Source: Ostreococcus lucimarinus (Eukaryota). Taken from it: DNA of 64,000 bases. The stretch lies in assembly GCA_000092065.1 (NCBI GenBank), contig CP000592.1. One strand, given 5' to 3'. Position 1 is the stretch's first letter, and each line of letters begins with the position of its first letter. Below the pieces are notes generated by a model. It worked only from the letters and a program-made list of their open reading frames with translations. It was not told the origin of the DNA and ran no database searches. Made by a program: the position numbers and the translations under genes. This document shows positions 199-63,821 of the stretch, piece after piece.

Positions 199-862
199 GA
201 GGGAGGGAGGCGCTTCGGGAGAAGTGCCGTAACCGACCGACTAGCTAATACTTATTACACCTAACCCTGGGTTCTCTGGGTCGTACTGAGGCATGAAAAG
301 TCACTATCATTCGCATCCTTCCTGTGCACCTTCACGACACCCGACGGCCATCACTCGTCGACCAGCACGGCACCGCAGACTTCCCCCTCGACGCTCCGGA
401 CGTCGCCGGACTCTTGCGTCAAAGTGCCTTCTTCAGTGTTCGTGTTGGACGACAAACGACCGGTCGTAGTTTGTCCTCTGTGAAAATAATGGAACCCCAA
501 GCACTCCTCTTGCGTGACACACAGTCGATTTGAGTGGAAAAGTTTTTGGTTCCTTCCTCGTTAGACATCGTTCAATGCACATTATTACAACAGGGCTTTT
601 AATCAACATTCTTAAAACAAAACTTGACACGGCGACTCTCACAGCGCCGTACCGTTACCGCCAGGAGCTCGCTGGCCCTTGTCATACAGCGGTTCATTCG
701 ATTCCATGGCGTCGGCGTTCCCGTCGCGTCGCCGACGAAGCACCACGACTGCAGCGACGACCACGCCAAATGACGCAACCTTACCGATGAACGCTGACGT
801 TCTCACGCCGCGCCTACCTGTGGCAAAGTTCTTAACATCGAAGCATCGCGTCAGTACGCGAA
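199..862. other. Subtelomeric unique sequence between the telomere and the first gene
   Basis: Non-repetitive sequence of moderate GC containing only short ORFs. It ends at the stop codon of the first convincing gene. Confidence 0.4.
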
Positions 863-2245
863 TCAACGTACGGCTGGTTTCAATTTTGACCTCACGCGCG
901 ATAGAGCGCGGTCAAGACTTTTTCCATTCTTGGATTGGACGAGATCGGTCCAACTTATTACTTCGGAGCCGAAATCGAGCGGAATACTGTGCGCGGCTCC
1001 GAATGGGCATCCCATCGCTGTGCTGTGAAGCGGAACGTTGATGACGTTTTTCATCAGCTGCGGCGCGTCTCCAAGAATGACATAAACTTCGGCAAACTGA
1101 TACGCCCAGTAAGGTTTGAAAGCCATAGTGAATTCATTCAAATCGATTAACCCATCGTTGTTGATATCAAATTTACCAAAGGCTTCTTCGCACATCTTTT
1201 GCGTGGTTTCGGTTGATACACCGTTGGTGATGAAAATTTGTGCGAGCTCGAGGAGATCAAGACTACCACTGTTGTCGAAATCGACAGATTCAAAAACACA
1301 GCGTGCTTGGACATCGTCTGGAATAGTTCTTAACGGTGCTAGCTGCGAAGTGTCCTTCCCTCGTGCATCCTGGACAACTTTCAAGTATCCAGTTTCGAAG
1401 AGAATTTTCTGAACGACTTCGGGTTGATGCTTGTATCTAACGTCATGATATAACCCATGATGGGCCTCGTGAAAGTACTGCAACATCGCACTCATCTCCA
1501 AATTCAACTCACGTTGTTCATCGCCGGTATGTTTCGATTCAGCAAATCTCGCAGCGAGAGTGTACGTCTTTCGACGAAGCCATAAATTGAAACCAATCAA
1601 CCAAACGATCAAGAAAATCATAATGGAGAAACCATAGGCCTGTCCAGCGCCAATAGTTCCTGCAATTAGCACAGCCAAGGTGTATCGGCTTTCGCGAGCG
1701 GCTTGACAAAAGTAAAGCAACACCATCCATACTCGTACCCAAGCGTAGGTTTGATGATTCGCCCAAACCGTCCACAGCCACTCCAACCGTTCCAGCTCAT
1801 AGAGCGAGTCGTCGAGAAGGGCATGAATCAAGCCAGCAACGCTCACAACCTTAACCAATGCAATGAACTGGTATGCTGGGACTGTGAGCAATCTCTGCCC
1901 ATTTACGTTGGGTGTTTGAGCGATGACCGTCATCAAATGTATTACATCGAACCCCACTGTGATCCACATAATTGGCGTCGAAACCTTTGGATTTGCGCTG
2001 CAGAACGCCACAATTGGTAGACAGACATTGATAGTGCCGCTTATGAGATGCGTTCGGATGATTATTCGAGACTTACGGAGCACCGTAAACTTTGGGTGCG
2101 GTGGAGTCGTCCAATGGAAATGCAAAATTCCCGCATTCGCCACCATGGACAGCGTGGCGAAGAGCAGTCGTTGAAGCAAGTTCAGAACATGATGGGCATG
2201 GAACAGCGGGACGTCCCACGAACTTTGACTCCATAGGTATTCCAC
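863..2245 (-). CDS. Polytopic membrane protein with histidine-box-like motifs and a C-terminal EF-hand pair; function unknown
   Basis: 460-aa ORF. Hydrophobic N-terminal two-thirds with motifs HAHH, HFHWTTPPH and HEAHHGLYH. Two canonical EF-hand loops (DFDNSGSLDLLE and DINNDGLIDLNE). GC is about 40-50 percent, far below the window average. Confidence 0.55.
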   Translation of the reverse strand: MEYLWSQSSWDVPLFHAHHVLNLLQRLLFATLSMVANAGILHFHWTTPPHPKFTVLRKSRIIIRTHLISGTINVCLPIVAFCSANPKVSTPIMWITVGFDVIHLMTVIAQTPNVNGQRLLTVPAYQFIALVKVVSVAGLIHALLDDSLYELERLEWLWTVWANHQTYAWVRVWMVLLYFCQAARESRYTLAVLIAGTIGAGQAYGFSIMIFLIVWLIGFNLWLRRKTYTLAARFAESKHTGDEQRELNLEMSAMLQYFHEAHHGLYHDVRYKHQPEVVQKILFETGYLKVVQDARGKDTSQLAPLRTIPDDVQARCVFESVDFDNSGSLDLLELAQIFITNGVSTETTQKMCEEAFGKFDINNDGLIDLNEFTMAFKPYWAYQFAEVYVILGDAPQLMKNVINVPLHSTAMGCPFGAAHSIPLDFGSEVISWTDLVQSKNGKSLDRALSRVRSKLKPAVR

Positions 2246-2637
2246 GTAACTCTGAACGGCGAATGAAAAATGCGTGTCGAGTTAGTTAATTCCTCATGCG
2301 AAGTCCTACCAAATGCTTTCGTCGAGTGTCCGCGTTCGTCTCTCATACCTGGGTTTCTGTCATCACACCGACATAGCGCGCGTCGCTCATGATTAATTCG
2401 TGAACGCGCGACGTCGAGCGTCGACGACTAGCGTCAACCGTATCTTCTCGCCCGGCGTGCTGTTTAGAACGGTCGTTTTTTTAACTTAATTTTTTATTGC
2501 GCGAAACGAGACGAGATCACATACTTAAGCCATAATTAGCTTACTTGGAGAACAATTGTGGCTTGTGTCCCGGCGCGACGAGGCGTCGCGCGCTTCTTTG
2601 CGCGCGCGCGTACTCTGTTGCCGAGAGTGCTCTAAAT

Positions 2638-2667
2638 TCCCAACTTTTTCTCCTCGTTAGGTAACTT
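2638..2667. repeat. 30-nt dispersed element (copy A), located in the 3' UTR region of the SF1 gene
   Basis: tcccaactttttctcctcgttaggtaactt is the exact reverse complement of 10501..10530. Confidence 0.8.
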
Positions 2668-2727
2668 GTCATTCTAAACTACAAGGCCCTAGATGCTATG
2701 TATCTATGTTTCCAATACGTCAAGATT

Positions 2728-4797
2728 CTACAACGGCGGTGGCGGCATCGGCGGCGCCACGCCAGGCAGGACGGTGATGGCGTCTGCGGTGAAGACAGGC
2801 AGCGGCGGGGCGTCGAAGTCGTCTGGAGGCGGCGGAGGAGCTTCGTCCGGATTGCCGAGCTCGACTGTGGGCATGGCGAAATCGTACGGCGGGCCAACTG
2901 GAGGAGCGCCGTAGTACGACGCAGCCATCGCCGGATCGTATGCCGGCTGAAACCCATACGCCGGAGGCATGAAACCACCGGCTGCGACCGGAGGCACAAA
3001 GCCCATCGGCGCGAAACCTCCCATCGCGCCACCGCCACCGCTCGTCGGACCTCCACCGTTTTGCCCCGCGATTCGTACGATGAATGGTCGAGTGCTGTCT
3101 GCGAAGTACTGGCCGTCGAGTGCCGCGATCGCTGCGTGCGCGTGCGATACATCCATCATCTGCACAAACCCGTAGCCTTTGGGCACTTGCGTCGCGTGAT
3201 CGCGGATGAGTTTCGTCTTCTGCACCAAGCCGTAAGGCGCGAAGATTTCGCGCAAGCTCTCTTCCGTCATGCTCTCAGTCATGCCGCCGACGTAAAGGTT
3301 CGCGTCGGGATCAAACGATCCACTATCCCGTCTAGGCTCTTCGCGCGGCGCCGTCTTCAGGCGCACTTCCATCGGCCGATCGCCGAATAGAGCGCCATTC
3401 ATGGACGTCGCCGCCGATTTTGCTTGCTCCACTGTTGCGAAAGTGATGAAAGCGAAACCTTTGCAGGAATACCCGAGCGCTGCGTCGGGAATACACGCGA
3501 CGTCTTGCACGCCACCGATGGACTTGAACGCATCGGCCAATGCGTCCGCCGTGGCGTTGTTTGGTAGATGACCGACGTAAATCTTTCTATCGTCATCTGA
3601 GTTGTCGTCCGAGCGACGCGCGCGTCCGCGCCCGTCGACGCCGAGCTCGGATAAAAAGTCGCTGTACGCACTGTCGAGCGTACCACCGGCGCCGGCGCCG
3701 TGGAGCTTCTCTACATCTTTCCTGTAAGTCGCTTCAACAGCCTTCTTCACGGTCTCCGGCAGCTGATAAATCGAACCGCTCGCTAACTCTTCGTCTAAGC
3801 GCTTCTGCATAGCCTCGATGGACGACTCGTCCCTCCATGTTCCGTTCATGAGCGCGAGCTCGCGAAGTTGTTGACGCTTGTGCTCATTCATATCTTCGTC
3901 CACGGGAATCAAAAGCTTTTCTATCATCGCCTTGGCCTTGTCTACGTCGCTCTGCACGTCGCCCTCGATGAGCACGTGGAGAGGCTCGTGATCGAACTCG
4001 TTATTGCGCTCCGCCGCGCCCGTACCGCCCTTCGCGCTGCCTCGCCCTCGAATGACAATTTTCGTATTTGTCTCTCGCTGCATCTGCTTTTGCGTCGACC
4101 CACGAGGACCGATTATCAAACCGAAGAAGTTGTAGCCCGGATATTCGTCCACGGGAATCAGCAACTTGGCCGTTCGTTTGTTTGGCCGGTAATCCGGCGG
4201 CGGGCGGAACATCGGACACTTGCGGCAGATGTCCTCCAACAGCTCCATGCGGCGACGTTGAAACTTCTCTCGCTCTACGACTTCCCGAGTGTTCACGCGC
4301 ACGCCGTTGGCGTCGTACACAGGCGCGGGCTCGGGCTCGCGGTCGCCGTTGCGTCCTTCATCGTACGGCTCCCCGGCGAGCAAACGACGGTTCAACTGAG
4401 CGAGTTCACGAAACATGAAGTGCACTTCCGCCGTCGCTTCCGCCGGCGCGCTGTGCTCGGCGAGCACAGATGTGGGCAGTTGCACGAAAATTCCCGAGCC
4501 GACGACGAGCGAGTTCGTCGGCGTCGGCGTCGTCTGCACCGCGCGTTGCGCCGCGTCTGCGCGCTCCTTCGCTTCCCGCGCCGCCGCGACGACGAGCGCG
4601 TTCGCGACGTCATCGGTTGCATCTTCGGTCGCCCAACGACTCTTACGCTTCTTCTTCACCTCTGTCGTCGTCGCGTCGTCAGCGCCCCATCGCGATCTTC
4701 GTCGCACTCCTGTCGCCGCGTCCGTCGCGGTCGTCGTCGCCGTCGTCGCGCGCGCGTCGTGGTCACCGACACCACCGCCGTCGTCGTCGTCCGTCAT
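2728..4797 (-). CDS. SF1: Splicing factor 1 / branchpoint-binding protein with KH-QUA2 core, two RRMs and a proline-rich tail
   Basis: Contains ICRKCPMFRPPPDYRPNKRTAKLLIPVDEYPGYNFFGLIIGPRGSTQKQMQRETNTKIVIRGRGS and HVLIEGD...KAKAMIEKLLIPVDEDMNEHKRQQLRELALMNGT, the typical SF1 KH-QUA2 signature. Two RRM-like blocks follow (RKIYVGHLP...KGFAFITF and NLYVGGM...KGYGFVQM). The C-terminus is proline-rich. Confidence 0.8.
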   Translation of the reverse strand: MTDDDDGGGVGDHDARATTATTTATDAATGVRRRSRWGADDATTTEVKKKRKSRWATEDATDDVANALVVAAAREAKERADAAQRAVQTTPTPTNSLVVGSGIFVQLPTSVLAEHSAPAEATAEVHFMFRELAQLNRRLLAGEPYDEGRNGDREPEPAPVYDANGVRVNTREVVEREKFQRRRMELLEDICRKCPMFRPPPDYRPNKRTAKLLIPVDEYPGYNFFGLIIGPRGSTQKQMQRETNTKIVIRGRGSAKGGTGAAERNNEFDHEPLHVLIEGDVQSDVDKAKAMIEKLLIPVDEDMNEHKRQQLRELALMNGTWRDESSIEAMQKRLDEELASGSIYQLPETVKKAVEATYRKDVEKLHGAGAGGTLDSAYSDFLSELGVDGRGRARRSDDNSDDDRKIYVGHLPNNATADALADAFKSIGGVQDVACIPDAALGYSCKGFAFITFATVEQAKSAATSMNGALFGDRPMEVRLKTAPREEPRRDSGSFDPDANLYVGGMTESMTEESLREIFAPYGLVQKTKLIRDHATQVPKGYGFVQMMDVSHAHAAIAALDGQYFADSTRPFIVRIAGQNGGGPTSGGGGAMGGFAPMGFVPPVAAGGFMPPAYGFQPAYDPAMAASYYGAPPVGPPYDFAMPTVELGNPDEAPPPPPDDFDAPPLPVFTADAITVLPGVAPPMPPPPL

Positions 4798-4930
4798 GTC
4801 GCGCCGCGCGACGTCGGCGCGCGCCCGCGTGTGAGGATTCGTACGGGACGACGTCCGTCTCAGTGCGGTCGCGGTCGCGCACTCGCCCGAACGCCATCGG
4901 GTCGGGTCGTCGGCCGCACATTCAGTCGCG

Positions 4931-5785
4931 ATGATTGGCGCGATGCGCCGAGAGATCTCGAAACGCGCGAGCGCGTGCGTGAGAAATTATGCCGCCGGCG
5001 CGGGAAAGCCCAAGGCGAGCGGAGAAACCACCGACGTCGTCAAGCGCGTCTTCATCGAGCAGCAGACCAAATTTCGCGCGCTGCTCACGAAGACGAAGGA
5101 CTTGAAGCCGCCCGTGGGAGGAGACGCGGCGGCGGTCAAGGCGTACGCGGCGAAGAAATTGGCGGCGTTAAAAGAGGTACGTCGATCGCGCCGACGCGCC
5201 GACGCGTTGACGCGCGCGCGAGGGCGGAAACACGCGATCTCGTCGATCGGCTCGAACGCGCGCAACCCGATCGACGTGTTGGGGTTTGATTGTGGTTGTG
5301 GTCGTGGACAGGCGCGCTTTCGCCTCGGTCGAGCCGTCGACCGCTGGCTCGAGGAAAAGGACGAAGACTGACGGCACACACGTCGCGCGCGCGCACAGTT
5401 GGACATCTCAACGCCGGGAGAAAAAATTCTCGAAACCGTCGACGGCGCGTTCGCCGAAGCGGCGAGCGTGCGCGGGTTCTTGGAGTACGCGGGCGAGCTG
5501 CGACAAATGCTCGGTTTGAAAGATGAAGACGACACGATGAAGGTCATGGTGAGCGCTTTGGACGAAACTGAAAAGGCGCTCGGGAAGGCGTTACTGACGA
5601 GCGACGCGCAAGGCATGGCGAAGTACAGTAGCGCTGTGGCCAAGGCGTCGGAAGCCGCCGGTATTAAGCCTTTGGACGCCGCGGCGATGGCGAAGCTCCA
5701 AGGCGAGGTGGACTTGGAATCTATCGAAAACGAAATTCTCGAGTTGCAATCGGTCGAAGACGAAGTGAAGAAGGAGGAGGCGTAA
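4931..5785 (+). CDS. Mitochondrial ATP synthase subunit FAd (plant 24 kDa subunit, MGP1-like); two exons 4931..5176 and 5399..5785
   Basis: Exon 1 (VVKRVFIEQQTKFRALLTK...AAVKAYAAKKLAALKE) and exon 2 (LGKALLTSDAQGMAKY...QGEVDLESIENEILELQSVEDEVKKEE) are collinear with the plant FAd subunit as recalled from memory. The intron 5177..5398 starts GTACGT, ends CAG and is 222 nt, a multiple of three. The reading frame is preserved across it. Confidence 0.65.
5177..5398 (+). other. Spliceosomal intron of the FAd gene
   Basis: Donor GTACGT and acceptor CACAG. The putative branch motif agactgacg lies about 25 nt upstream of the acceptor. Confidence 0.6.
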
Positions 5786-5828
5786 TCGTGCTGCAATGAA
5801 ATGAATGTAATACTATACCAAACGTTTG

Positions 5829-6626
5829 TCATCGTCTGCTCGACGCGTTCGTCGCGTCGCCTAAGACTTTCGCGCGCGAAGGCTCGCGATTTGGATGATC
5901 GGCGCGTTCTTGTTTTCGTTTCTTACGCTCGGCTGGATAGACGTCGCATCCGACGTCGAGACGTTTGATGTCGCGCGAGTTGAACCAATCGGCGCCGTAC
6001 CACTGGAGCAACTGCGCGCCCTTCTTCACGTCTCGACTGAGAATAAACTCGCGCCCGACGAGCGTGCGTTTCGGACAGCGCGTGTCACCGAAGAACACAT
6101 TCGTGGATCGATTGTTTGATACTTCGTTGGGCCCGGGATTCGACATAAATTGTAACTGCGCGGCGTCGCCGAGCGGGCACGGATCGATGACGCCTCCGCC
6201 GGAACGGAAGTGCATCGCGTGATCGCGTCCAGCGCGTCCACACTCTCTCCACGTCTTGCGCTCGCCGAAATATACTGTTTTGTAACCTTTGGGTAAATCT
6301 CGCGTGGCGATGAGAATCTTATCGCCAAACACTGGATGCTTGACGACTCGCAACGCCTCGTCGCCGCGCTCGAGGTGCTCCGCGCAATACGGCAGGCACG
6401 AGTTTTCGCAATCCGCCCGCGCGCCGCAGATCGATCCGTTGGCGCGCGTGGCCCAGCACCACGATACGCCTTTCGCCTGCGCCCCTCGCAATCGAGTCGG
6501 GACGCCCTCGCGCGTCGTGGCTGTCGGCGTCCACGACGCCCCACCTCGCCGCGTGTCATCTTGTGCGTCGGCGTCCGTCGTGGACGCGCGTTCCTTGGCG
6601 CGCGCGCGTCGCACACGATCGCACAT
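5829..6626 (-). CDS. SET-domain-like protein with an N-terminal Cys-rich motif; start uncertain
   Basis: Cys cluster CWATRANGSICGARADCENSCLPYCAEH. The following region (GYKTVYFGERK...LQFMSNPGPNEV...GREFILSRDVKKGAQLLQWYGADW) resembles a SET fold with a degenerate NHSC block. The Arg-rich 5' extension of the long ORF to 6956 is probably not coding. Confidence 0.4.
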   Translation of the reverse strand: MCDRVRRARAKERASTTDADAQDDTRRGGASWTPTATTREGVPTRLRGAQAKGVSWCWATRANGSICGARADCENSCLPYCAEHLERGDEALRVVKHPVFGDKILIATRDLPKGYKTVYFGERKTWRECGRAGRDHAMHFRSGGGVIDPCPLGDAAQLQFMSNPGPNEVSNNRSTNVFFGDTRCPKRTLVGREFILSRDVKKGAQLLQWYGADWFNSRDIKRLDVGCDVYPAERKKRKQERADHPNREPSRAKVLGDATNASSRR

Positions 6627-6958
6627 GACGCCGCCACGCGTTCGCGCGAGCGACTCGCACGTTCGCGCGCGCGCGACACTCCGCGGAGTGAGTCGCGGAG
6701 TGTCGCCCGTCGCTTCTTCGGTCTGGTTGTTTTCAAACTCGCTCCCTTTCGCGCACTCTTCGACGGCGGCGCGCGGCGTCACAGTGCGACGCGTCGTCTT
6801 CGCCAGTCGTCGAACGCGAACGACGAAGCGAACGCGCGGAAAGTCGTCGAACCCGCGCGCGCACGCGTCGTCGAATCCGCGCGCGCGTGCGAGGAGACGC
6901 GATGTTGTCGCGCCGACGTGGCGTCGTCGAAGCCGCGTGGCGCGCGGCGTCGACATCC

Positions 6959-8425
6959 ATGCGAGCGGCGACGAATTCGGGAACGACGATCGCCGACGGC
7001 GCGCGCGTACCGTCGTACGCGTCGGCCTCGCGATCGCACGCGTCTCGCGCCGCGCGCACCGGGCACGGCGCGAGCGAAGATAAAGAAAAAGAAAATGGCG
7101 CGAAGAAGAGTCACGAGCGGGGCGGCGTTAGCGGCGGCATCACGCGCGCGGGAACATCGGGGAGACACAGAGGCGATCGGGATGGACACGGGGACAGTGT
7201 ACCTGCGTTCCGGTCGCGAAAATCCGTCGACGCGACGACAGACGTGGAGTGGGAAGGACGCACGTTTACTGGGTCCAGGCTCGAATACGCCGGCGTCGAG
7301 GTACGCGGAGAGCTTCGTTGGCCCATACCGCTGCATGCGCTGGCGGAAATCAATCCGGTCTTGAAAGAGTTACTAGAAGTGGCGAAGACGAGCGACGGGA
7401 AGGAAGAGCGCGCGATGGCTGAGCGCATGAGCGTGTTGCGTGCGAGCGGCGAATTAGGACGTCGCGAGACGCTGAGCGTCGTCTCGACGTCTTCGTCCGG
7501 ATTCGGGAATATGGGCGGCACGAACGTGCGAACGATGACTCCCGGGCTCATCGAGTTTGAGCAGTTTCTCGTCGAAAGCGGTTGGCGCGTGGATTCGGAG
7601 CGCAAAGCGATCTCTCGAGACGTGCGCGATACGCTCGTGAGCGAAGCGAAGAAAAAAACGGCGCTGAAGATGAAGGTGAATGACGCACCGATGAGCAAGA
7701 CCATGCTGAGTAAGGTAAAAGTCGGTGACTTGCGTGACGCCGCAAAGGTTCTCGGTCTCGATCAGGTCATGCAGGGCGTCACCAAGAAGGCGGACGTCGT
7801 CGCGTACCTGCTCGCGTATTATGAATACATGCATGGTACAATCGACGCGAAAACCATGGGCGTGCGCATGTCGGACGTATCCAGCATCAGCGCGGAGATC
7901 ATGCGAGAAGCCGAAAAGGATTCGAATGCCACGTCGGCGAGCGCACGCTCGGCAAAAGTGTCGAAACCGGAGCTCAAGCGCGAAACAGATCCAGGTCGTA
8001 TGGACTACGTGAAAGCTTTCGAACCGGATGAATTGGTACAGCTTCTTGTTCGCGCTCGCGGTATCGACGTGATGTCTATAAACGTTCGCGATCAGTGCAC
8101 GTGGACAGACCATCTCATTATCGCCACTGCGCGAAGCGCGCACCACCTGAAGGCGCTCGCCGGCGCAGTTCTTCACGCCGTGAAAGCGCGCACCGAGTAC
8201 GTCGCCGGCGGTCGATTGCAGCCAGTCATCGAGGGCGCCCAGAACGGCGGGGATAAGGACTGGATGGCTGTCGACTGCGGTTCGTGCATGGTGCACATAT
8301 TCTCTCCCGAGGGTCGAGCGCAGTACAATCTCGAGGAACTGTGGGCGACAGGCGAAGAGATAGTACACAATGGGCCTGAACGCCTCTCGATCGACACCAT
8401 CGGCGCCGATCACCACACAGCGTGA
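6959..8425 (+). CDS. Iojap/RsfS-family ribosomal silencing factor with a long N-terminal extension, probably organellar; start uncertain
   Basis: The C-terminus (IDVMSINVRDQCTWTDHLIIATARSAHHLKALAGAVLHAVKAR...DWMAVDCGSCMVHIFSPEGRAQYNLEELW) matches the Iojap/DUF143 signature. Upstream there is a SAP-like helix pair (KVGDLRDAAKVLGL...KADVVAYLLAYYE). Confidence 0.65.
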   Translation: MRAATNSGTTIADGARVPSYASASRSHASRAARTGHGASEDKEKENGAKKSHERGGVSGGITRAGTSGRHRGDRDGHGDSVPAFRSRKSVDATTDVEWEGRTFTGSRLEYAGVEVRGELRWPIPLHALAEINPVLKELLEVAKTSDGKEERAMAERMSVLRASGELGRRETLSVVSTSSSGFGNMGGTNVRTMTPGLIEFEQFLVESGWRVDSERKAISRDVRDTLVSEAKKKTALKMKVNDAPMSKTMLSKVKVGDLRDAAKVLGLDQVMQGVTKKADVVAYLLAYYEYMHGTIDAKTMGVRMSDVSSISAEIMREAEKDSNATSASARSAKVSKPELKRETDPGRMDYVKAFEPDELVQLLVRARGIDVMSINVRDQCTWTDHLIIATARSAHHLKALAGAVLHAVKARTEYVAGGRLQPVIEGAQNGGDKDWMAVDCGSCMVHIFSPEGRAQYNLEELWATGEEIVHNGPERLSIDTIGADHHTA

Positions 8426-8476
8426 CGCGCGCTCGAAACGTGAGCCGTTGTAAAGTAAAAAGCAATGTTACACAAA

Positions 8477-9484
8477 TTACACTGAGACTAGAATAGAGTA
8501 CGCGCGATCGGCGAACGCGTCGGCGGCGGCGATATCGTCCGCGGAAGAACTCGCTAGAAGCTCGTCGACAGTCGTCGTCCAACCCGCGCGCTCAGCTGCC
8601 GATACGCTCGCGACGCACAGTGGCACGGCGCCATCGTCGGAAAACTCGTAATTATCCAACGCAGGTCCCGCGATGTCGATCTCTAACCAAACCTGCGCGT
8701 CATCATTCGCATCTGGCGCGTCGTCTATGCGCACGATGGCCGTTTGATGAAACGCCGCGCGCGTGCCTAATTTCGCCGCAATCGATTCGTCGAATTCGTG
8801 CGTGAGCAAGTTCCGCCTCGACTTCGGGCCCTTCTCGCCGTGATACAAAATCTCGGGATTGGCAAATAGTCCCCCTTTCAACGGCCGTGGTGCCTTCATC
8901 GCGCGCACGTCGCGCACGACGCGCCCATCGCGAGCAACGAGCGCGCGCGTTTGCGTCAATTTGCGAAGCAACGCGCACGTCGCCAAGCCACCAACGCACT
9001 CACTCAACGCCGCGCGTTCGGCTTTGAAATACAACGACCGCAATAGCGCGGCGGTTTCGTTACCCGGCGTCACGCTCGGGAACAACTGTCGGATCGCCTC
9101 CGCGTTTACGTTCGCCCAAAACTCGTCGACGTCTCGCTTGCCCTCGCTCGCGCTCGCGCGTTCCACCACCCACGCCACCGACTTCGCCTCCTTCCCCGTC
9201 TTCGCCGCGACGACGTCGGTGACGGCGCCAGGATCGGTGACGTTCGACAGCGACAATCCAAGCTTCAAGACTCGATAATCAGGCTCGACCGTCGTCGCGT
9301 GCACGACGTGCGACAACACTTTCCCGGCTTCCTCGATGGTGATGGTCGCGGCCCGCACGACCGTCGTCGCGCGTCCTCGCGCGCGCGCGACGCGCGTCGT
9401 CGACGCGAAGATCTCACGCGTTTGAGCGCGCGCTGCGGTCGATCGCGTCGTCGCGCGCGTCGTCGCGCGCGGCGTCGTCATATC
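8477..9484 (-). CDS. Hypothetical protein, possibly 2H-phosphoesterase-like; start uncertain
   Basis: Open frame with two H-x-T-x tetrapeptides (HATT and HQTA) about 190 residues apart. No other recognisable domain. The Arg-rich N-terminus is probably a transit peptide or non-coding. Confidence 0.3.
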   Translation of the reverse strand, partial: DMTTPRATTRATTRSTAARAQTREIFASTTRVARARGRATTVVRAATITIEEAGKVLSHVVHATTVEPDYRVLKLGLSLSNVTDPGAVTDVVAAKTGKEAKSVAWVVERASASEGKRDVDEFWANVNAEAIRQLFPSVTPGNETAALLRSLYFKAERAALSECVGGLATCALLRKLTQTRALVARDGRVVRDVRAMKAPRPLKGGLFANPEILYHGEKGPKSRRNLLTHEFDESIAAKLGTRAAFHQTAIVRIDDAPDANDDAQVWLEIDIAGPALDNYEFSDDGAVPLCVASVSAAERAGWTTTVDELLASSSADDIAAADAFADRAYSILVSV

Positions 9485-9523
9485 CACACACAACGACGCG
9501 CAGTGACGACGACGACGACGACG

Positions 9524-10489
9524 ATGGCGACGTCGATGGCGCCGCGCGGGACGGCGCCGAGCTCCAAGTCTCAGGCGCGCTTTGGGCGACGTACGCACAT
9601 CGCGACGGCGCCGACGCGCAGAGCGCCGACGCGAACGCGCGTCGGTGCTATTAAATCCGACGTCCCACCGCAGCCATTCACAGTTCGCGAGGGCGAACTC
9701 GGTAAAGTGCTGAGCGCGGCTATTCCTCTGGTGCTGCGCCTAGGGACGGGAGCGCTGATCGGGGGGTACGAAGTACGTCTTGACGCGGACGACGATGGGA
9801 GCGAGGGCAAGTACGCCATCGCGCGTTTTGCGAAGCGACGCGTCGCGGAGCGTTCCACGACGTTGCCGACGACGCGGCCGGCCAAACCGATCACGCTGTA
9901 CGAGTACGAAGGAAGTCCGTACTGTAAGAAAGTGCGCGAAGCGTGCTCAGTGCTCGATTTGGACGTTTTGTTCAAGCCGTGTCCGCAAGGCTCGCTCGCG
10001 TTTCGAGCGGAGAGCAAAGCGCTCGGCGCGACGACGTATCCGTTTCTTCTCGATGAAAACACCGGCGCAAAGATGTCTGAAAGCGATGACATCATCGAAT
10101 ATTTATTCAACACATACGGTGGTGAGACGAAGGTTCCATTTCTGCTCAGGCGCGGGGGGCTGGCGACGAACTCGACTGCGTACGCCGCCGCGTTGGCTCG
10201 AATGAAGGGGCTCTCGGCGCGCCAGGCGAAAAAGATCCCCGAGCAACCACTCGAGTTGTGGACGTACGAAATCAGCCCTTTTAGTAAGTTGGTTCGCGAA
10301 ACGCTGACCGAGTTGTGCGTTCCGCACGTGGTGAAGTACTGCCCGCGGGGCTCCGAAAAACGCCACGAGCTATACGCGATGGTCGGGCATTTTCAAGTTC
10401 CTTTCTTGCGCGACGCCAACACTGGGAAGGCCATGTTTGAATCGAAGGATATTTGCGAGTACATCGAGAGCGAGTACGGTAGCAGCTAG
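9524..10489 (+). CDS. Protein with two tandem thioredoxin-fold (GST-N / glutaredoxin-like) domains, likely plastid-targeted
   Basis: Two homologous modules (ITLYEYEGSPYCKKVREACSVLDLDVLFKPCP...DENTGAKMSESDDIIEYL and LELWTYEISPFSKLVRETLTELCVPHVVKYCPRGS...DANTGKAMFESKDICEYI). An Arg/Thr-rich N-terminal presequence precedes them. Confidence 0.6.
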   Translation: MATSMAPRGTAPSSKSQARFGRRTHIATAPTRRAPTRTRVGAIKSDVPPQPFTVREGELGKVLSAAIPLVLRLGTGALIGGYEVRLDADDDGSEGKYAIARFAKRRVAERSTTLPTTRPAKPITLYEYEGSPYCKKVREACSVLDLDVLFKPCPQGSLAFRAESKALGATTYPFLLDENTGAKMSESDDIIEYLFNTYGGETKVPFLLRRGGLATNSTAYAAALARMKGLSARQAKKIPEQPLELWTYEISPFSKLVRETLTELCVPHVVKYCPRGSEKRHELYAMVGHFQVPFLRDANTGKAMFESKDICEYIESEYGSS

Positions 10490-10500
10490 TCAGATTGTAA

Positions 10501-10530
10501 AAGTTACCTAACGAGGAGAAAAAGTTGGGA
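10501..10530. repeat. 30-nt dispersed element (copy B), lying between the convergent GST-N-like and ABCG genes
   Basis: aagttacctaacgaggagaaaaagttggga begins 12 nt after the stop of the gene on the plus strand. It is the exact reverse complement of 2638..2667. Confidence 0.8.
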
Positions 10531-10550
10531 AAAATGTGTCGTCGTCGCGA

Positions 10551-12383
10551 CTACGCAGATTTGGACGCGCCAATCGTTTGCGCCTTCTTGGACTTTCGAA
10601 CGAACATGACGACGTACGCGAGCTTGTACGCGCATCCGATGGCGAAAAGGATCATGGCGTTTTCAAGAAGTTTATCTTCGGAGTCGATGGCGTCGTACGT
10701 GTTATGGAGCGACGCCAAGACTTCTTTGCCGTTGCGGCCGAAGCACAGCGTCGAGCTTCCACACGAGAAACCCGCGGCGGCGCTGGGGTCGGTGACGGCG
10801 CCAGTCCACGTGGCGTCGATGAAATCCAAATACACCAAGTTTTTGATCGCCCACTTCATGAAGGTGATGTAGCTCATGGCGCGGAACGGCCAAATCACGT
10901 CACCTTCTCGAACCATGATGCCACAGAAGAGAAATCCGGCGAACCAGATGTTCATGAACGTCAGCATCCCCATGAGAGGGTTGTCGAACATGATGGAGAA
11001 CACTTGCGCCGCGGACTCGAACGCCCAGAGCGTCAGCGCGTACATCAAGATCACTTGAACGAAATGCGGACCGTACCAAGCGACCATGCCGTATGCGGGG
11101 ATCGCCATCGCGAACAAGGCGAGAACAATCATGATTGGAATCTGAATTATGAGGTTGGAAAGCAAATACGCGTACGGCGACAACAACCCATTCTTCACTT
11201 CACGTTTGATCGCGAAGAATTCTTCGTTGTACACGTACGTTGCGACGACGCCGAGAGACGACGGCACGCCAAGAAACCAGAGGACGAGCCACATGCGAGC
11301 GAAAACTTGCTCTTGCGATCGGGCGCGAGACTCGATGTAAATGACACCGAAGAAGATGCACGCGAATAAGAACATCACCATACGTCCAACGTACATGGAC
11401 GGATCGCGATACGTGATTATCCAGTGACGGCGCACGAGCGTCATCGTCTGCGCGAAAAGATTCGTGCCCTTGCCCGAGACGTCCTCGAGTGGGCCGGTGT
11501 GGTCGCATCCGCTGTCGTTCGGCGTATACTGATCTAAAATCTCATCCACTTGCTTGGGATCGCTAAACTCCGAGTTCACGACGTTTAGCATGTGCTCAGC
11601 GATGGCGTCTCCCGGCGAAACTGGGTGGCCGATGTTCGCAAAGTACGACTCCGTCTTGCTCGCCGGCCCGAGGTAAGCCACGCGTCCCTTACTTAAGAGC
11701 ATAATTCGATCGAAACCATGAAACACCGCGCTCGACGGTTGGTGAATGGTGCAGCAAATGGCAATGTTTGCCGCTTGCGCGAGCTCCTTTAAGAAGGCCA
11801 TGATCGAAGCCGCCGCCGCGGCGTCCAAGCCCGACGTCGGTTCGTCGAGGAACAACACCGACGGCGAGCTCACGAGGGCGATGGCGAGCGACAAGCGGCG
11901 CTTCTGACCACCAGACAGGCCTTTCAAGAACTGATTACCGCACTTCGTATGTCTCGAAGACGCCAAACCGACCGTGTTGATGATGGCGTCCACGCGTTGC
12001 TTCTTCTCTTCCGCGGAAGATTTCAACAATAAATCAGCCGCAAACGTCAGCGTTTCTTCGACGGTGAGAAACGCCCACAAACGATCGACTTGGGGCACGG
12101 TCGAGCAGTGCTTGGTGAAAAGCTCGGGGGTGATCGGAATGCCGTTCAATCGAACGTCTCCGGTGTACGTTCCGCCCTTACCCTCGAGCGTGAGAAGGTC
12201 GATGAGACACGTTTTCCCGGCGCCCGAGGGCCCCAAAATCGCCAGCACTTCTCCCGAACACACTTGACCGCTGATTCCATGCAAGATTTCCTTGCGCTTG
12301 TCGCCTTTTCCGACCTCGAAACGCACGTCGCGGAACGCGAGCGTGGTGTCTTTGCCTGCGTTGGGTTGAACGCGCGCGCTCAA
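10551..12383 (-). CDS. ABC transporter, G-family half-transporter (NBD followed by TMD)
   Basis: Walker A GPSGAGKT, ABC signature LSGGQKRR and Walker B ILFLDEPTSGLD. Six predicted TM helices follow. Confidence 0.85.
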   Translation of the reverse strand: MSARVQPNAGKDTTLAFRDVRFEVGKGDKRKEILHGISGQVCSGEVLAILGPSGAGKTCLIDLLTLEGKGGTYTGDVRLNGIPITPELFTKHCSTVPQVDRLWAFLTVEETLTFAADLLLKSSAEEKKQRVDAIINTVGLASSRHTKCGNQFLKGLSGGQKRRLSLAIALVSSPSVLFLDEPTSGLDAAAAASIMAFLKELAQAANIAICCTIHQPSSAVFHGFDRIMLLSKGRVAYLGPASKTESYFANIGHPVSPGDAIAEHMLNVVNSEFSDPKQVDEILDQYTPNDSGCDHTGPLEDVSGKGTNLFAQTMTLVRRHWIITYRDPSMYVGRMVMFLFACIFFGVIYIESRARSQEQVFARMWLVLWFLGVPSSLGVVATYVYNEEFFAIKREVKNGLLSPYAYLLSNLIIQIPIMIVLALFAMAIPAYGMVAWYGPHFVQVILMYALTLWAFESAAQVFSIMFDNPLMGMLTFMNIWFAGFLFCGIMVREGDVIWPFRAMSYITFMKWAIKNLVYLDFIDATWTGAVTDPSAAAGFSCGSSTLCFGRNGKEVLASLHNTYDAIDSEDKLLENAMILFAIGCAYKLAYVVMFVRKSKKAQTIGASKSA

Positions 12384-12728
12384 TCGTCAGTCAACCCGTC
12401 CATTCCTCACGCGGCATCCAGGGGTACGGACAAGGGCACCGAACGCGATCGAACGCTGTTTCTTCGTCCCGCACCTTTCTCTTGCAAGTCGAGCAGGCTC
12501 GGCGCCTTCTTCATCGGCTTCCCTACTTCGACGTCCATGGTGTGTGCGCGCGCGGGTGTGGTCACGGCGCGCGCGTCGCGATCTCACGCGCGGCGCCGTC
12601 CAGGTCTGGACGCGAGGAGGTGCCGTCTTCGCGCCGACTTTTGCGATGCGAGCGTTTTGATTGGTTGGCTTCGGGAGCGGGTGCAAATGTCTGTTCTGTT
12701 TTACATCGGTTCGTTCGCTCGTTCGTTT

Positions 12729-14408
12729 CTATGCGGCGGCGACGCCCCACGCTGTTTTGAGGTACTTGACTATCCCTCCAACGTACGCGGTTTTCGTCTC
12801 GTCCTGCCAAGACTTTGGCAGTCGAGCGCACAACGAATGTTCAAATTTCTCGAGACGAGTCGTGCCGTCGCGCCAATGCTCGGTGAGAGACACCGGCGTG
12901 GCGTTCAAGTCAATCGCCGCGAGCGGCTCGCTGTCGCCGACACCAGCGTGCGGCGTGGTTCTGAATCTATCTGCGAGGCCTTTGAGTTCGCGCAACACAT
13001 CAGGGGAAACGTCTTCGCATCCGGCGTGTTCGACTTTCAGTTCGTACGGCTCGGGTTCGCCGCCGAAATCGACGCAGTGAAACATCCGAACGTCGCTCTT
13101 CTGTGAGTCGTTTCGTACGTCGTAAGGACCGACGATGGCACCCACGAAGGGTGCGATCGTTTGCGACTCACCATCGGAGCGCGCAAACATCTTTTGATAT
13201 TCAAATTGGTTTTGAATGTCGCGAATCGACGGCTGCGTCGCGAACACGGGATGAGAATGATACCAACCGACGATACCTTCACCTTTGGCCGTCAATGTCT
13301 CGACGATTGCCGGCACACTCTCTGGATCGAGCTCGACTTCGACGCCGGCGTGTTCCTGGACGAGCTGTCGAGCAGGAAGCGCTCGCGTAATGCGCAACGT
13401 CTTCGCGTCGTCGTCGTACACGCCTCCGAGAAATCCGATGATTTCGTCCGAGCACAAATGCGCGTGGAAATCCATCACCAACTCCGCGCCGGAAGTCACC
13501 GTGACTTTGAATGGCTGCGTCCGTCGTTTGTTGTACGCTTCGCACGTCACCATTTGTAAGTCGCCCTGTCCGTCGAAGCTCTCGCCAATGTTGATGTTTT
13601 TAGACGCGTTTCGGCTTTCACGCTTTTCGCGCGCGGGAACGACGATGCGTTTGACCGCCGCATGGTACCCACGCTCGTCGTCCGTGATCTTTTTCCGTTT
13701 CTTCGGCGTCGGCGTCGGCTTCGGCTCGCGCTTCGCCCGCGGCTTGGGTTCGGGCTTGGGTTCGGGAGGGAGTCGCCGCTTGATATCGCCCAACTTTACC
13801 CCGGCGTATTTCACCCAATCCCACCCGTTGTCCACCTTTCGCTCTGGGTTCTTCTCCCGCACGACTGCTAAACGGAACTCGCTCACGGTGTTAAAGACGA
13901 GCGTTTCAACGTCCGCCGCGTCGACGGCGGTTTCCTCGCCACCTTCCTCATCCTTCACCGGCGCGGGATCGACGATCTTCCTCGCTCGCCTCCAGACGAT
14001 CGTTCCGTCTTCTTTCAAATCAGCTAATGTCTCTTCCTTGCGCAGCGTCGTCGACAACACGTTTTCGCCAGCCGCGACGAGGCCGAGCTCGAGCATGCGC
14101 CGCATGATTACTCGACCATCTCGCGTCCCTCGCGCGCGAGGCGCGGTCGCTCGATTCGCCGCGCCTTCGTTCGCGCCGTCATCGTCATCGCCCTCGCCCT
14201 CGCCCTCACCGTCCGTCGTCGTCGTCGTCGTCGTCGTCTTCACCGCGCGTTTCTTTGATTTCGCAGCGGCTCGTCCAAAACGTGCATCGTCGTCGCTCTC
14301 GTCGCTCTCGTCGCTCTCGTCGTCGTCGTACGCCGCGCGTCGACGCGAGCCCGCGTACTCTTCCTCTTGCGCCTGCAGCGCCAGCGCGTAGGCGAGGTCG
14401 TCGTCCAT
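12729..14408 (-). CDS. JAMM/MPN+ metalloprotease-domain protein (MPND / deubiquitinase-like) with an acidic, lysine-rich N-terminal region
   Basis: Intact JAMM motif: E...HAHLCSDEIIGFLGG...WYHSHPVFATQPSIRD, which fits H-x-H-x7-S-x2-D. Confidence 0.7.
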   Translation of the reverse strand: MDDDLAYALALQAQEEEYAGSRRRAAYDDDESDESDESDDDARFGRAAAKSKKRAVKTTTTTTTTDGEGEGEGDDDDGANEGAANRATAPRARGTRDGRVIMRRMLELGLVAAGENVLSTTLRKEETLADLKEDGTIVWRRARKIVDPAPVKDEEGGEETAVDAADVETLVFNTVSEFRLAVVREKNPERKVDNGWDWVKYAGVKLGDIKRRLPPEPKPEPKPRAKREPKPTPTPKKRKKITDDERGYHAAVKRIVVPAREKRESRNASKNINIGESFDGQGDLQMVTCEAYNKRRTQPFKVTVTSGAELVMDFHAHLCSDEIIGFLGGVYDDDAKTLRITRALPARQLVQEHAGVEVELDPESVPAIVETLTAKGEGIVGWYHSHPVFATQPSIRDIQNQFEYQKMFARSDGESQTIAPFVGAIVGPYDVRNDSQKSDVRMFHCVDFGGEPEPYELKVEHAGCEDVSPDVLRELKGLADRFRTTPHAGVGDSEPLAAIDLNATPVSLTEHWRDGTTRLEKFEHSLCARLPKSWQDETKTAYVGGIVKYLKTAWGVAAA

Positions 14409-14739
14409 GACGCGCGCGACGCGGTGCCGACGATCGCGCGGCGGTCCGTCGTCCGGCGATTTCAGATTTCAAACGTCCGACCGGCGATTCACGATTCGAC
14501 GAGGGTCTAGGGTTTAGTCGAGCGCGCGAACGGCCGCCCGCGCGCGTCGTCGTCGGGCGGCGCCCACTCGAACGCGCGTCGACGCGCGTCGATCGCGACG
14601 TCGATCGCGTCGAGCGCGCGCGAGACGAGCGCGACTGTCGTCGTCGACGCGCGCGCGAGCGACGCGCGCGCGAGGGGCGTCGACGACGACGAGGCGCGTC
14701 GACGCGTCGACGCCGCCGCCACCGCGGACCGCGCGCGCC

Positions 14740-16242
14740 ATGTCGACGAAACGAACGAAACGCGAGGCGCTGGGGAAAGAGATCGCGGACGACGCGCTGG
14801 CGAAACCTCGGTCGAAGCGCAAGCAAACGAAGGCGCGCGCGCGGACGGCGGACGAGGAGGATTACCTCCCGGACGCGCTGTCGACGAAGATTTTGAGAGA
14901 GGCGAAGGAGCTGCGAGAGGAAGTCGAGGCGGCGACGTCGAGCGAGGAAGAGGGCGCGGACGATGAGGGGCGAGAGAATCGACGAAGGAAGAGCGGCGAA
15001 CATCGCGTCAAGCTCGGACGAACGCTCGACGCGAAGAGTGCGACTTTGATCGATGACTCGTACGGAAGCGGCGACGACGACGGCGAGGACGAGGCGATGG
15101 GCGACGAGGACGCGCCGAGTCGACGCGGTGGGGCTTTCGACGAGGACGACGATGATGAGGGGTACATCAACGAAGCCGACGGACAGTACGAGGAGGTGGA
15201 AATCAGCGCCGAGGAAGCGGCGGCGTTGGAAGCGTTCATGGCGCCCAAGCTCGGCAAAGACAAAACGCTCGCGGATATGATTATGGAAAAGATTCAAGAG
15301 CACGAGAGCGCTGGTGGGTCTACGGCGCGAGACGAGGAAGGTGAGATGATTCCAGAAGGGTTGGATTCTCGTGTGATTGAGATTTATAGACAAGTCGGCG
15401 AGCTTTTGACGAGGTACACCACGGGCAAGGTGCCAAAGGCGTTCAAAATCATCCCCGCGCTCTCCAACTGGGAAGAAGTTTTGTACTTGACCAATCCCGA
15501 TAGATGGAGTCCGCACGCGATGTATGCGGCGACGCGTCTGTTTGCGTCGAACCTGAATGTGACGATGGCCCAGCGCTTCTTTAATTTGGTGCTCCTGCCG
15601 CGCGTACGCCAGGACATCGCAGACAATCGAAGGTTACACTTCGCGCTCTTCATGGCGCTCAAGAAGGCGACCTTCAAGCCCGCGGCATTTTTCAAGGGTA
15701 TGCTTTTGCCTTTGTGCCAGAGCAAAACGTGCTCGCTGCGAGAGGCGGTCATTTTTAGCGCCGTTTTGTCGCGATGTTCGGTACCAGCGTTGCACTCCGC
15801 CGCCGTATTGATGAAGCTATCCACGTTTGAGTACGCCGGAACGACATCCTTCTTCATGCGCGTATTGCTCGACAAGAAGTATGCACTGCCGTTTAGCGTT
15901 GTGGACGCTCTAGTTGATCACTTTTTGCGCTTTTCGACTGAGGAGCGCGAACTTCCGGTGGTTTGGCATCAAACGTTGTTGACTTTCGTGCAACGCTACA
16001 AGGCGGTCATCGACAAGGAAAGCAAAAAGTTGCTCTTCAAGCTCGTGACGATCAAAAGTCACTACTTGATCACGCCCGAAATTCGTCGCGAGCTCGCACA
16101 CGGTAAGTCTCGAGGGGAGGCGGACAACATGGACGCCGACGTCGGCGTTGGAGCTTTTAGCAAAGCCGTCAAAGCCAAGGCGCTCGAGGAGAACGTGCGC
16201 GATATGCCCGCGATCCCGATGCTCGCCGACGATCAATATTAG
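14740..16242 (+). CDS. Bystin / Enp1 (40S ribosome biogenesis factor)
   Basis: The C-terminal 300 aa (YRQVGELLTRYTTGKVPKAFKIIPALSNWEEVLYLTNPDRWSPHAMYAATRLFASNL...) match the bystin family. The N-terminus is acidic and Lys-rich. Confidence 0.85.
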   Translation: MSTKRTKREALGKEIADDALAKPRSKRKQTKARARTADEEDYLPDALSTKILREAKELREEVEAATSSEEEGADDEGRENRRRKSGEHRVKLGRTLDAKSATLIDDSYGSGDDDGEDEAMGDEDAPSRRGGAFDEDDDDEGYINEADGQYEEVEISAEEAAALEAFMAPKLGKDKTLADMIMEKIQEHESAGGSTARDEEGEMIPEGLDSRVIEIYRQVGELLTRYTTGKVPKAFKIIPALSNWEEVLYLTNPDRWSPHAMYAATRLFASNLNVTMAQRFFNLVLLPRVRQDIADNRRLHFALFMALKKATFKPAAFFKGMLLPLCQSKTCSLREAVIFSAVLSRCSVPALHSAAVLMKLSTFEYAGTTSFFMRVLLDKKYALPFSVVDALVDHFLRFSTEERELPVVWHQTLLTFVQRYKAVIDKESKKLLFKLVTIKSHYLITPEIRRELAHGKSRGEADNMDADVGVGAFSKAVKAKALEENVRDMPAIPMLADDQY

Positions 16243-16352
16243 ACTAGGAACACGCGAGTGTAAAAGTGCAAACTGATGAAAGAATCGCCGTTCACTCCTT
16301 ATTAAAACGTTCGACGCTACAGGTACACAATATTAAGTTGCCAACACTCCTC

Positions 16353-17243: not shown

Positions 17244-17688
17244 GAGGCCTTCGTAACTGCGTCGAAAGACACGCGCAAGCGATGGTTAAAATATCAGTCG
17301 TACGTTTCGTGCGAGATTTCGCGCGCCATCGACGTCGCGCGCGGCGATTTCGCGCTACAATCGCGAACAATCGCCTCGAGGGTTTCCGCGCGCGCGAGCG
17401 AACGAGTTCGCGCCGCGTTCGCGTCGATGCGACGTACGTGGCGCCATCTGAGAACACGATCGCATCCCAGGTATATTTCTTCTGAAATTCTCGCGGGATG
17501 TTGGACCCCATGACGTCGCGCGCGAAGGTTCGAGAGGCGATGAGTGACGACGGCCAGAGGCGAGGGTTTGAACAGCCAGAGTGGGCGCGCGAGACAGAGC
17601 GCGCGGGAGCGGCGGGATCGAGCTATGACTACGGTGATATACAACACACACGGACTAACGGTGCGCAAAATAAGATGATGCTATGTCG

Positions 17689-19140: not shown

Positions 19141-19354
19141 CGCGCGCGCGCGCGCGCGCGCGAGCGAGTGGGGAGTCTCGACCCGCCAACGTCTCGACCG
19201 CTCGACCGCGCGTTCGCGATCGAGGCGCCATTCCTCCGCGCGTCGCGCGCGTCGCGCGCGCGTCGATCGCCGCGGCGACGACGAGGACGACCGTCATCGC
19301 TCTCGTCGTCGTCGCCGCGATCGACGCGTCGCGCGCTCGGATCGCCTCGACCGT

Positions 19355-19389
<35 letters not shown>

Positions 19390-19446
19390 CGCGTGCCCGG
19401 TTCGCGCGTGCCTCGAATCGCGATCCGCGTCGCGGTCGAGCGCGCG

Positions 19447-63786: not shown

Positions 63787-63821
<35 letters not shown>

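Follow-up and report, generated by a model that had tools for sequence, protein, structure and literature searches.

Genomic organization of an inverted repeat near the chromosome end

The stretch of DNA analysed here (the window) covers 64,000 nt of contig CP000592.1 of Ostreococcus lucimarinus, contains about 40 genes and opens with telomere repeats. We examined a 30-mer (TCCCAACTTTTTCTCCTCGTTAGGTAACTT) that is located at positions 2638-2667 on the plus strand and of which the exact reverse complement is found at 10501-10530. Both copies are therefore at most 10.5 kb away from the chromosome end. The 30-mer matches the window at these two positions only, even when three mismatches are allowed, and no match was obtained in 100 dinucleotide shuffles. 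A blastn comparison extended the identity to 31 nt (2637-2667 against 10501-10531), which ends abruptly on both sides, and identified no gapped or longer homology around the two copies past these 31 nt. The features of the region are as follows.

1-180, no strand: telomere repeat array (CCCTAAA)n, which marks the window as a chromosome end
863-2245, minus strand: gene for an EF-hand membrane protein, in a terminal segment of low GC content (~47-52%)
2246-2636, no strand: a2, the unique flank of copy A on the telomere side
2637-2667, minus strand: copy A of the 31-nt element, with the minus-strand reading AAGTTACCTAACGAGGAGAAAAAGTTGGGAA
2668-2727, minus strand: a1, the 60-nt 3' flank of SF1
2728-4797, minus strand: SF1/branchpoint-binding protein (SF1/BBP) gene (SF1-HH, KH and two RRM)
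2668-10500, no strand: single-copy spacer between the copies, 7,833 nt
between SF1 and GST_N, mixed strands: Mt_ATP_synt, an unnamed gene, RsfS and another unnamed gene
9524-10489, plus strand: tandem GST_N (thioredoxin-fold) gene
10490-10500, plus strand: b1, the 11-nt 3' flank of GST, terminating in TGTAA
10501-10531, plus strand: copy B of the 31-nt element
10532-10550, no strand: b2, the 19 nt from copy B to the stop of the convergent ABC-G gene
10551-12383, minus strand: ABC-G (ABC transporter) gene
past ABC-G, mixed strands: JAB, Bystin and MORN
10501-21123, no strand: the arm, which starts with copy B and comprises ABC-G, JAB, Bystin, MORN and onwards

A preliminary description of this DNA had reported an exact inverted repeat of 30 nt just downstream of the stop codons of SF1 and the tandem thioredoxin-fold gene, in the same sense as both genes. 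This geometry was borne out, with gaps of 60 nt between the SF1 stop and copy A and of 11 nt between the GST_N stop and copy B. The GC contents given there (43% for the element, ~65% for the background) were too high, as we measured 40% for the 30-mer and 61.6% for the window. The spacer holds six genes (SF1, Mt_ATP_synt, RsfS, two unnamed genes and GST_N), with SF1 on the telomere side and GST_N at the opposite end, and these two end genes face outward. Because they do so, the element has the same mRNA sense in both 3' flanks. The shared sense is automatic for an inverted repeat around such a segment, and the argument built on it therefore carries no weight.

The SF1 protein falls in a 90% cluster with XP_001420719.1 of O. 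lucimarinus CCE9901, and the exact protein is also encoded on hundreds of marine metagenome contigs. Copy A lies ~390 nt upstream of the EF-hand gene, which always adjoins SF1 in metagenome contigs of the reference type. We considered whether the EF-hand gene is a subtelomeric module common to other chromosome ends and rejected this, as the exact protein was found only beside SF1. Copy B occupies half of the 61-nt spacer between the convergent GST_N and ABC-G genes. As the ABC-G stop is 19 nt beyond it, copy B belongs to the 3' flank of a third gene too, in antisense orientation.

The element is confined to two Ostreococcus loci

A Hamming scan of the 64-kb window detected no third copy at up to nine mismatches, and matches to half of the element were scattered and at chance level only. 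The element is thus found beside only two of the genes of the window. A scan of JGI metagenomes in which the 5' neighbour served to leave out sites A and B (K plus 22-mer) gave no matches. An open scan with a core of 21 specified bases gave ten stretches. Seven of these are site A or site B in O. lucimarinus-like DNA, on five contigs from five assemblies. The other three are on low-GC, mutually homologous contigs, where 22 of 24 nt match inside an apparent coding exon. These plant-like matches were rejected as further copies since their flanks are unrelated, and they were counted as a single chance match. In the JGI metagenomes the core is therefore present at two Ostreococcus loci only, and the element is not a high-copy dispersed repeat.

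No match was found in IMG/VR for the 30-mer or for a degenerate 20-mer core, and an origin from a prasinovirus or another virus was rejected on this basis. A bacterial origin was rejected as well: one match, in a bacterial MAG, was obtained in 596 Gb with a 20-mer containing two 2-fold positions, which is about the chance estimate. No terminal inverted repeats or target-site duplications were visible in the flanks of the copies. Neither many copies nor such terminal repeats or duplications, by which a dispersed repeat or miniature mobile element would be recognized, were thus observed.

The element in relation to 3'-end formation and RNA structure

The dominant poly(A) signal of O. lucimarinus is UGUAA (PMC6413133). 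TGTAA (10496-10500) directly abuts copy B, and a TGTAG variant (CTACA on the plus strand, 2679-2683) is located 11 nt before copy A. From these positions, cleavage is likely to occur within or just after the element, so that mature mRNAs may carry only part of it. The element thus resembles the polyadenylation region of green algae in that it starts in the expected cleavage zone. In contrast, the known signal is a pentamer for which no 31-nt downstream element has been described (PMC6413133), and the element accompanies two genes here.

A search of the whole window against Rfam gave no match at the gathering score. The element can form a candidate RNA hairpin of 6 bp (-6.3 kcal/mol) with a marginal z score of -2.07, and bases that pair in this hairpin are changed in the versions of the element on two other contigs, from a sister lineage (L017) and from a lineage with 83% identity (L038). 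A structured RNA family was therefore rejected. Across 22-23 population contigs no excess constraint on the element relative to its flanks was detected, the flanks being equally invariant, and the commonest SNP within ~150 nt of copy B is found inside copy B itself (A-to-C at element position 23, in 4 of 22 contigs). Between lineages, the conservation of a1 (~55/60) is on a par with that of the element (18/20). A motif that recurs in 3' UTRs of a gene set was not observed either, with two loci only in the window at up to nine mismatches and in the JGI metagenomes. The interpretation given in the preliminary description therefore stands as far as geometry and low copy number are concerned. The RNA-level roles that it proposed, including a shared cis-regulatory site, found no support from a motif family, an Rfam match, extra constraint or a conserved hairpin, and beyond the geometry a regulatory role is not supported. 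What positive evidence was obtained links the element to junctions of structural rearrangements.

Metagenome contigs carry palindromic junctions at the element

All variant structures described below derive from metagenome assemblies. The element is denoted E, its variant in the sister lineage E*, and an inverted copy is marked by a prime (ABC', JAB'). The junctions of the reference, a1-E-a2 and b1-E-b2, are present in more than 20 contigs. A third junction, a1-E-b2, in which the SF1 flank is connected through the element to the ABC side, was found in five independent assemblies (L008, L018, L019, L037, and L039). In L008 and L019 it consists of a1, the 31-nt element and b2, and in L018, L037, and L039 it is present in a lineage-specific version. 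In those five, the SF1 flank leads through the element into an inverted second arm (ABC, JAB, Bystin and onwards) of at least 10 kb.

The L008 sequence is a JGI short-read contig that runs from 127 nt of the ABC side through E, a1 and SF1 onwards to GST-b1-E-b2-ABC. The overlap of 127 nt is four times the length of the repeat, which rules out an assembly error caused by those 31 nt. The L008 contig is the only one from its sample in the JGI scan and carries a1-E-b2 and b1-E-b2 and no a2-type junction. In L019, a single contig reads JAB-ABC-...-GST...SF1-a1-E-b2-ABC'-JAB'-Bystin'-MORN', and its two arms are 99.76% identical. L018 has the same layout. Its distal arm is inverted and aligns to window positions 10515-21123 at ~97.8%, compared to an identity of 99.4% with the window in the proximal arm. 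Between the two arms the identity is 96.7%, and the distal ABC and JAB genes are frameshifted. The junction in L018 is the variant AAGTTACCTAACGCGGAGAAAAAGTTGGAG followed by a 23-nt tandem duplication, and the contig extends for a further 8.4 kb beyond the distal arm that was analysed. It combines a spacer of the reference type with a distal junction of the sister type and could be a recombinant or a chimera of co-occurring strains. L037 and L039 belong to the sister lineage, with 93-97% nucleotide identity to the window over the aligned segments, and contain the junction SF1-E*-ABC'. L039 holds both arms in one contig, with 98.5% identity over 725 nt.

Since the arms are not identical within the single contigs of L018, L019, and L039, the same DNA has not simply been traversed twice. 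Inverted copies of the segment separated by a single-copy spacer are seen in L019 and L039, and the distal arm is inverted in L018. In the variant contigs, the arm takes the place of a2, the EF-hand gene and the telomere, and the EF-hand gene is absent after SF1 in L018 and L019. The reciprocal junction b1-E-a2 was found in none of the ~50 junctions that contain the element, so that a1-E-b2 does not occur together with b1-E-a2 as in an inversion with staggered breaks. As assembled, the contigs show that the chromosome exists in wild populations in at least two forms:

reference form: telomere - EF-hand - copy A - spacer - copy B - ABC...
second form: SF1 flank - element - inverted second copy of the ABC-JAB-Bystin... 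arm

The simplest reading of the second form would be a terminal inverted duplication (palindrome) with 2668-10500 as its spacer and with arms that start with the element. The a1-E-b2 junctions, together with the second, inverted arm, would place the element at the inner edge of a terminal palindrome that is polymorphic and has a spacer of 7.8 kb.

Ancestry of the two sites in related lineages

The convergent GST and ABC genes are neighbours also in a species with ~70% SF1 identity (L021/L022), and the site of copy B is therefore probably ancestral. A weak likeness of the element to the GST-ABC spacer of the species with 70% identity (19/28) was dismissed as indistinguishable from chance. In the lineage with 83% identity (L038), the GST flank reads TAG-ATAAGAATGTAA-22 nt-AATTTACCTATCGCGGA; after a conserved GAATGTAA it matches the element at 14 of 17 positions, a score that 57 of 5,000 shuffles reach as well.

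Each of the lineages examined has a different neighbour downstream of SF1 (EF-hand, cyclase-like, ADK, Neur_chan, JAB, or inverted ABC). As this neighbour is never constant, the site behaves as a rearrangement hot spot. In L009, a1-E and the first ~30 nt of a2 (2608-2636) are followed by a different, cyclase-like gene, the ORF of which (Guanylate_cyc match) reads into the element. In L017, a1 is followed by the first 20 nt of the element (18/20) and by 11 diverged nt; a convergent ADK gene comes next, with a stop region that reads ATTTAGAGGAC. At this offset the reference enters a2, and the 11 nt with which it does so, ATTTAGAGCAC, align with ATTTAGAGGAC. A remnant of the ADK gene hidden in a2 was rejected, as tblastn found none and only ~11 nt around the ADK stop align. 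A micro-inversion of 9 nt between L017 and the reference within the element (7/9 as reverse complement) was set aside as a post hoc proposal, since a forward alignment sharing AGTT fits about equally well.

The length of the stretch that is shared between sites A and B varies between lineages, from 31 nt in the window to ~51 nt for the sister-lineage contigs L017 and L040, which are from the same sample, and at least 129 nt in L019. At the sister-lineage GST-ABC site on L040, 29 nt of a1-like sequence precede E*, and because of this the GST frame ends in GI* and not in SS*. The junction on the GST side of L019 is composed of b1, AAGTCACCTAACG, 86 nt without a match, the last 31 nt of SF1 coding sequence, a1, E and b2, and sharing between the arms goes at least 129 nt past the outer edge of E in this contig. 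From these comparisons we infer that the core of the element is probably old at both loci and that the ends of the shared stretch have probably moved repeatedly.

A probable fold-back inverted duplication at the subtelomeric segment

Taken together, the element is best explained as a short inverted repeat that marks the inner boundary of a terminal palindrome, the palindrome being naturally polymorphic. Human chromosomes with inverted duplication and adjacent terminal deletion have inverted arms of kilobases around a spacer of 1.9-70 kb that is present in a single copy (Hermetz et al., 2014; PMC3907307), and in human fold-back cases short inverted homology is found at the junction between disomy and inversion (PMC3907307). 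In yeast, a break near natural inverted repeats leads to an inverted duplication, after which a telomere is captured (Al-Zain et al., 2023; PMC10622511). The matching architecture is the reason why a fold-back inverted duplication is proposed here. Like the human and yeast cases, the Ostreococcus locus has inverted arms, a spacer (of 7.8 kb) and short inverted homology exactly at the boundary of spacer and arm, and it is near a chromosome end. The replacement of the sequence distal to the spacer in the variant contigs may correspond to the terminal deletion. Unlike these cases, it represents a standing polymorphism of a wild marine picoalga, apparently in two sister lineages, instead of an event in a patient or a mutant, and it is known from contigs rather than from a break, a dicentric or stabilisation steps. 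The homology also differs: it is at least 31 nt long in Ostreococcus compared to mostly 2-8 bp, and the arms have diverged in some haplotypes. The case would be a new natural example of a mechanism of rearrangement that is already known from yeast and human.

Two further systems show partial resemblance. In the rDNA of Tetrahymena, 42-bp repeats direct the formation of a large palindrome at a free end, and yeast models behave similarly; the Tetrahymena spacer is tens of bp long and palindrome formation is developmentally programmed. The Ostreococcus locus is similar in that short inverted repeats near a DNA end define the centre of a palindrome with a non-palindromic spacer. It differs in the size of the spacer, 7.8 kb with six genes, and in showing no sign of programming. 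In Drosophila, staggered breaks leave inverted duplications at the breakpoints of inversions, and this model predicts one native and one new junction for each copy and a reciprocal pair of junctions. Common to both situations are short inverted duplicates around a segment whose orientation is not the same in related genomes. In contrast to the Drosophila inversions, no b1-E-a2 junction was found here, and copy A appears to be native on both sides.

We think it probable that the two copies represent an ancient short inverted repeat bounding the 7.8-kb subtelomeric segment and that they interact at the level of DNA and not of RNA. A break or a loss of the telomere distal to copy A would be followed by resection, which would expose copy A. 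Annealing of copy A to copy B could then take place over a distance of 7.8 kb, within one strand (fold-back priming) or with the sister chromatid as the partner, after which the arm would be copied by DNA synthesis and the resulting mirror chromosome would be stabilised later. Short-patch copying between the two sites, for example through synthesis-dependent repair that overruns the homology and is then end-joined, would keep the copies identical and shift the ends of the shared stretch. Such copying may account for the 31/31 identity in the window compared to 20 nt at site A of the sister lineage (20 to more than 129 nt among relatives), for the 29-nt piece of a1 at the GST site of the sister lineage and for the complex boundary in L019. 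The near-identical arms of L019 on a background of the reference type suggest a recent event, and the sister lineage's own version suggests recurrence or an old polymorphism. Several points count against fold-back. A mirror duplication primed at copy B should, by copying through the centromere, give a dicentric chromosome. The repeat of 31 nt exceeds the microhomology that is typical for fold-back (2-8 bp), and a conserved function would likewise be compatible with a core that is found 3' of both genes in several lineages.

The polarity of the change could be the reverse, an unlikely alternative in which the palindrome came first. The reference would then have lost the distal arm by a break just past the element and captured the EF-hand segment and a telomere, which healed the end; copy A, or at any rate the final 11 nt of it, would be a leftover of the arm and not a substrate. 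The SF1 flank of the sister lineage matches only the first 20 nt of the element, whereas copy A agrees with copy B over its last 11 nt as well, as such a leftover would. The low GC content of the foreign-looking terminal EF-hand segment and the arms of L018, of which the 3.3% divergence and the frameshifted distal genes suggest an old duplication, likewise favour a reference derived from a truncated palindrome, and telomere capture after breakage of a dicentric is documented (PMC10622511). Against this polarity, the alignment of ATTTAGAGCAC with the sister ATTTAGAGGAC at the same offset makes the junction of copy A and a2 look native and favours a native copy A; the break would have had to fall within 11-31 nt of the junction in a very long interval between centromeres; and the nearly identical arms of L019 point to a recent event on a reference-like background. 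We regard it as quite unlikely that the element is instead a functional 3'-UTR or 3'-end-processing element under selection, such as a binding site or a downstream element of UGUAA, which the rearrangements exploit. The core does follow both stops in the same sense in lineages down to ~83% identity, close to TGTAA or TGTAG, and can form the small hairpin mentioned above, but the shared sense is forced by the geometry, only two loci carry the core in the Ostreococcus DNA of the JGI metagenomes, and the 64-kb window has no other copy. The hairpin is lost in L017 and L038, there is no Rfam match and no excess constraint, and the commonest local SNP is inside copy B. Moreover, the ends of the shared stretch vary by lineage as those of conversion tracts do, unlike a fixed motif.

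A simple inversion polymorphism, in which the 7.8-kb segment flips between the copies and the palindromes are chimeric assemblies of both orientations, is very improbable in our judgement. It would be in line with the inverted gene order around the block between Ostreococcus species, with the mixed composition of L018 and with the strain mixtures that are expected in metagenomes. Nevertheless, the reciprocal b1-E-a2 was never seen among ~50 junctions, the sole contig of the L008 sample in the JGI scan has both a1-E-b2 and b1-E-b2, and L019 and L039 each hold both arms, with an inner boundary in L019 that is private and complex. That a very small mobile element left the repeat behind, as a footprint or as a fragment of its end, or that the repeat belongs to a dispersed family, is close to refuted. 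Sharp edges, perfect identity and a short AT-rich stretch in two intergenic sites are what this reading has to offer, but no more copies are present in the window, in viral contigs or at other Ostreococcus sites in the JGI metagenomes, the flanks lack visible terminal inverted repeats and target-site duplications, and the matches elsewhere (plant-like coding sequence and one bacterial MAG) are at chance level.

Implications for chromosome-end plasticity and motif searches

If the fold-back reading is true, a 31-nt repeat that looks regulatory would be both the scar and the substrate of rearrangement at a chromosome end. A wild picoeukaryote would carry alternative chromosome ends, as revealed by metagenome contigs alone. 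These ends have a low-GC gene with a telomere, a cyclase-like gene, ADK or a palindrome that exceeds 10 kb, and every one of them is joined no more than a few tens of bases from a single short repeat. The locus would then provide a natural fold-back duplication at an inverted repeat, defined by its sequence, outside yeast, human disease and cancer, and a testable hot spot for genome plasticity in Ostreococcus. We consider it improbable, as an extension of the fold-back reading, that the repeat is a selected fold-back site, kept at the 3' ends of SF1 and GST for a recurrent and reversible palindrome of ABC transporter, JAB, and Bystin genes, or that, instead of or besides this, it doubles as a 3'-end-processing element common to both genes. 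As a fold-back site it would act as a ready-made copy-number switch for wild Ostreococcus populations and be a natural analogue of the programmed rDNA palindrome of Tetrahymena. For motif hunting in compact genomes, the locus calls for caution, as pairs of 3' UTRs that share a sequence in the same sense arise automatically from repeats that flank outward-facing end genes.

Junctions in the sister lineage and gene order between species

The predicted GST_N protein ends in GI* in the sister lineage (L040, 3700-3860; L039, 10850-11000), that is, in the metagenome contigs related to the window at 93-97% nucleotide identity, and in SS* in the reference type. This different C-terminus arises because 29 nt of sequence resembling the SF1 flank are fused directly to the last codons of the gene. 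The GST_N end of the sister lineage is a rearrangement junction that changed a coding end. The sister-lineage version of the element also carries a tandem duplication of a 23-nt unit, GGAGAAAAAGTTGGAGAAAATTC, which is built out of the element's 3' half and is found at the SF1-side and GST-side junctions alike.

Contigs carrying the tandem duplication of GGAGAAAAAGTTGGAGAAAATTC
L018, 12153-12215 (reference-type spacer with a sister-type distal junction)
L037, 7760-7830 (sister lineage)
L039 (sister lineage)
L040 (sister lineage)

Comparison of window 2700-16000 with contigs of other Ostreococcus species (L021/L022 and L023/L024) showed that the gene order of the block is shuffled among species. 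X, GST and ABC are inverted as one unit, JAB is located either after SF1 or after ABC, and the orientation of Mt_ATP_synt is flipped. It is the entire neighbourhood, and not the element alone, that is rearrangement-prone.

Variation at the telomeric end

Two further contigs depart from the reference type on the telomere side of SF1. Scaffold_45 of ENA ERZ23487415 (L030) is reference-type apart from its tail, matching the window as far as position ~1323, within the EF-hand gene, and continuing into unrelated sequence with a 288-aa ORF on the opposite strand; this tail is either an additional structural variant of the chromosome end or a chimera. In JGI contig Ga0257114_1000315 (L009, 1-1369) the EF-hand segment is replaced by a 368-aa ORF with a Guanylate_cyc match. 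This ORF is convergent with SF1, and its reading frame crosses the ~30 nt of the telomere-side flank of copy A that this contig shares with the window (2608-2636) and enters the element (...CRECSKFPTFSPR*).

The GC content of the terminal 2.5 kb beside the telomere (window 200-2700) is 47-54%, compared to ~62% in the remaining window, and its sole gene encodes a multi-pass membrane protein bearing an EF-hand pair. The composition of this segment looks foreign, and it may represent a captured chromosome end.

Element-like match and other repeats

Three plant-like JGI contigs (L010, L013 and L016; 37-47% GC) share GGTACCTAACGAGGAGAAAAGGTT, which matches the element at 22 of 24 positions and falls within an apparent coding exon (...NLFSSLGTHNSSD...). 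We judged this likeness to be a chance match.

Elsewhere in the window, a 111-nt unit is repeated nine times in tandem (19780-20967), its seven central copies being ~99-100% identical. Gene calls across this region range from 226 to 717 aa among the metagenome contigs, and repeat copy-number variation is one possible cause of these length differences. A long GCC/GCCGTA-rich repeat with units of ~9, 12 and 21 nt (63575-63900) reaches the window end and would encode, on the opposite strand, a predicted Gly/Tyr-rich low-complexity protein segment.
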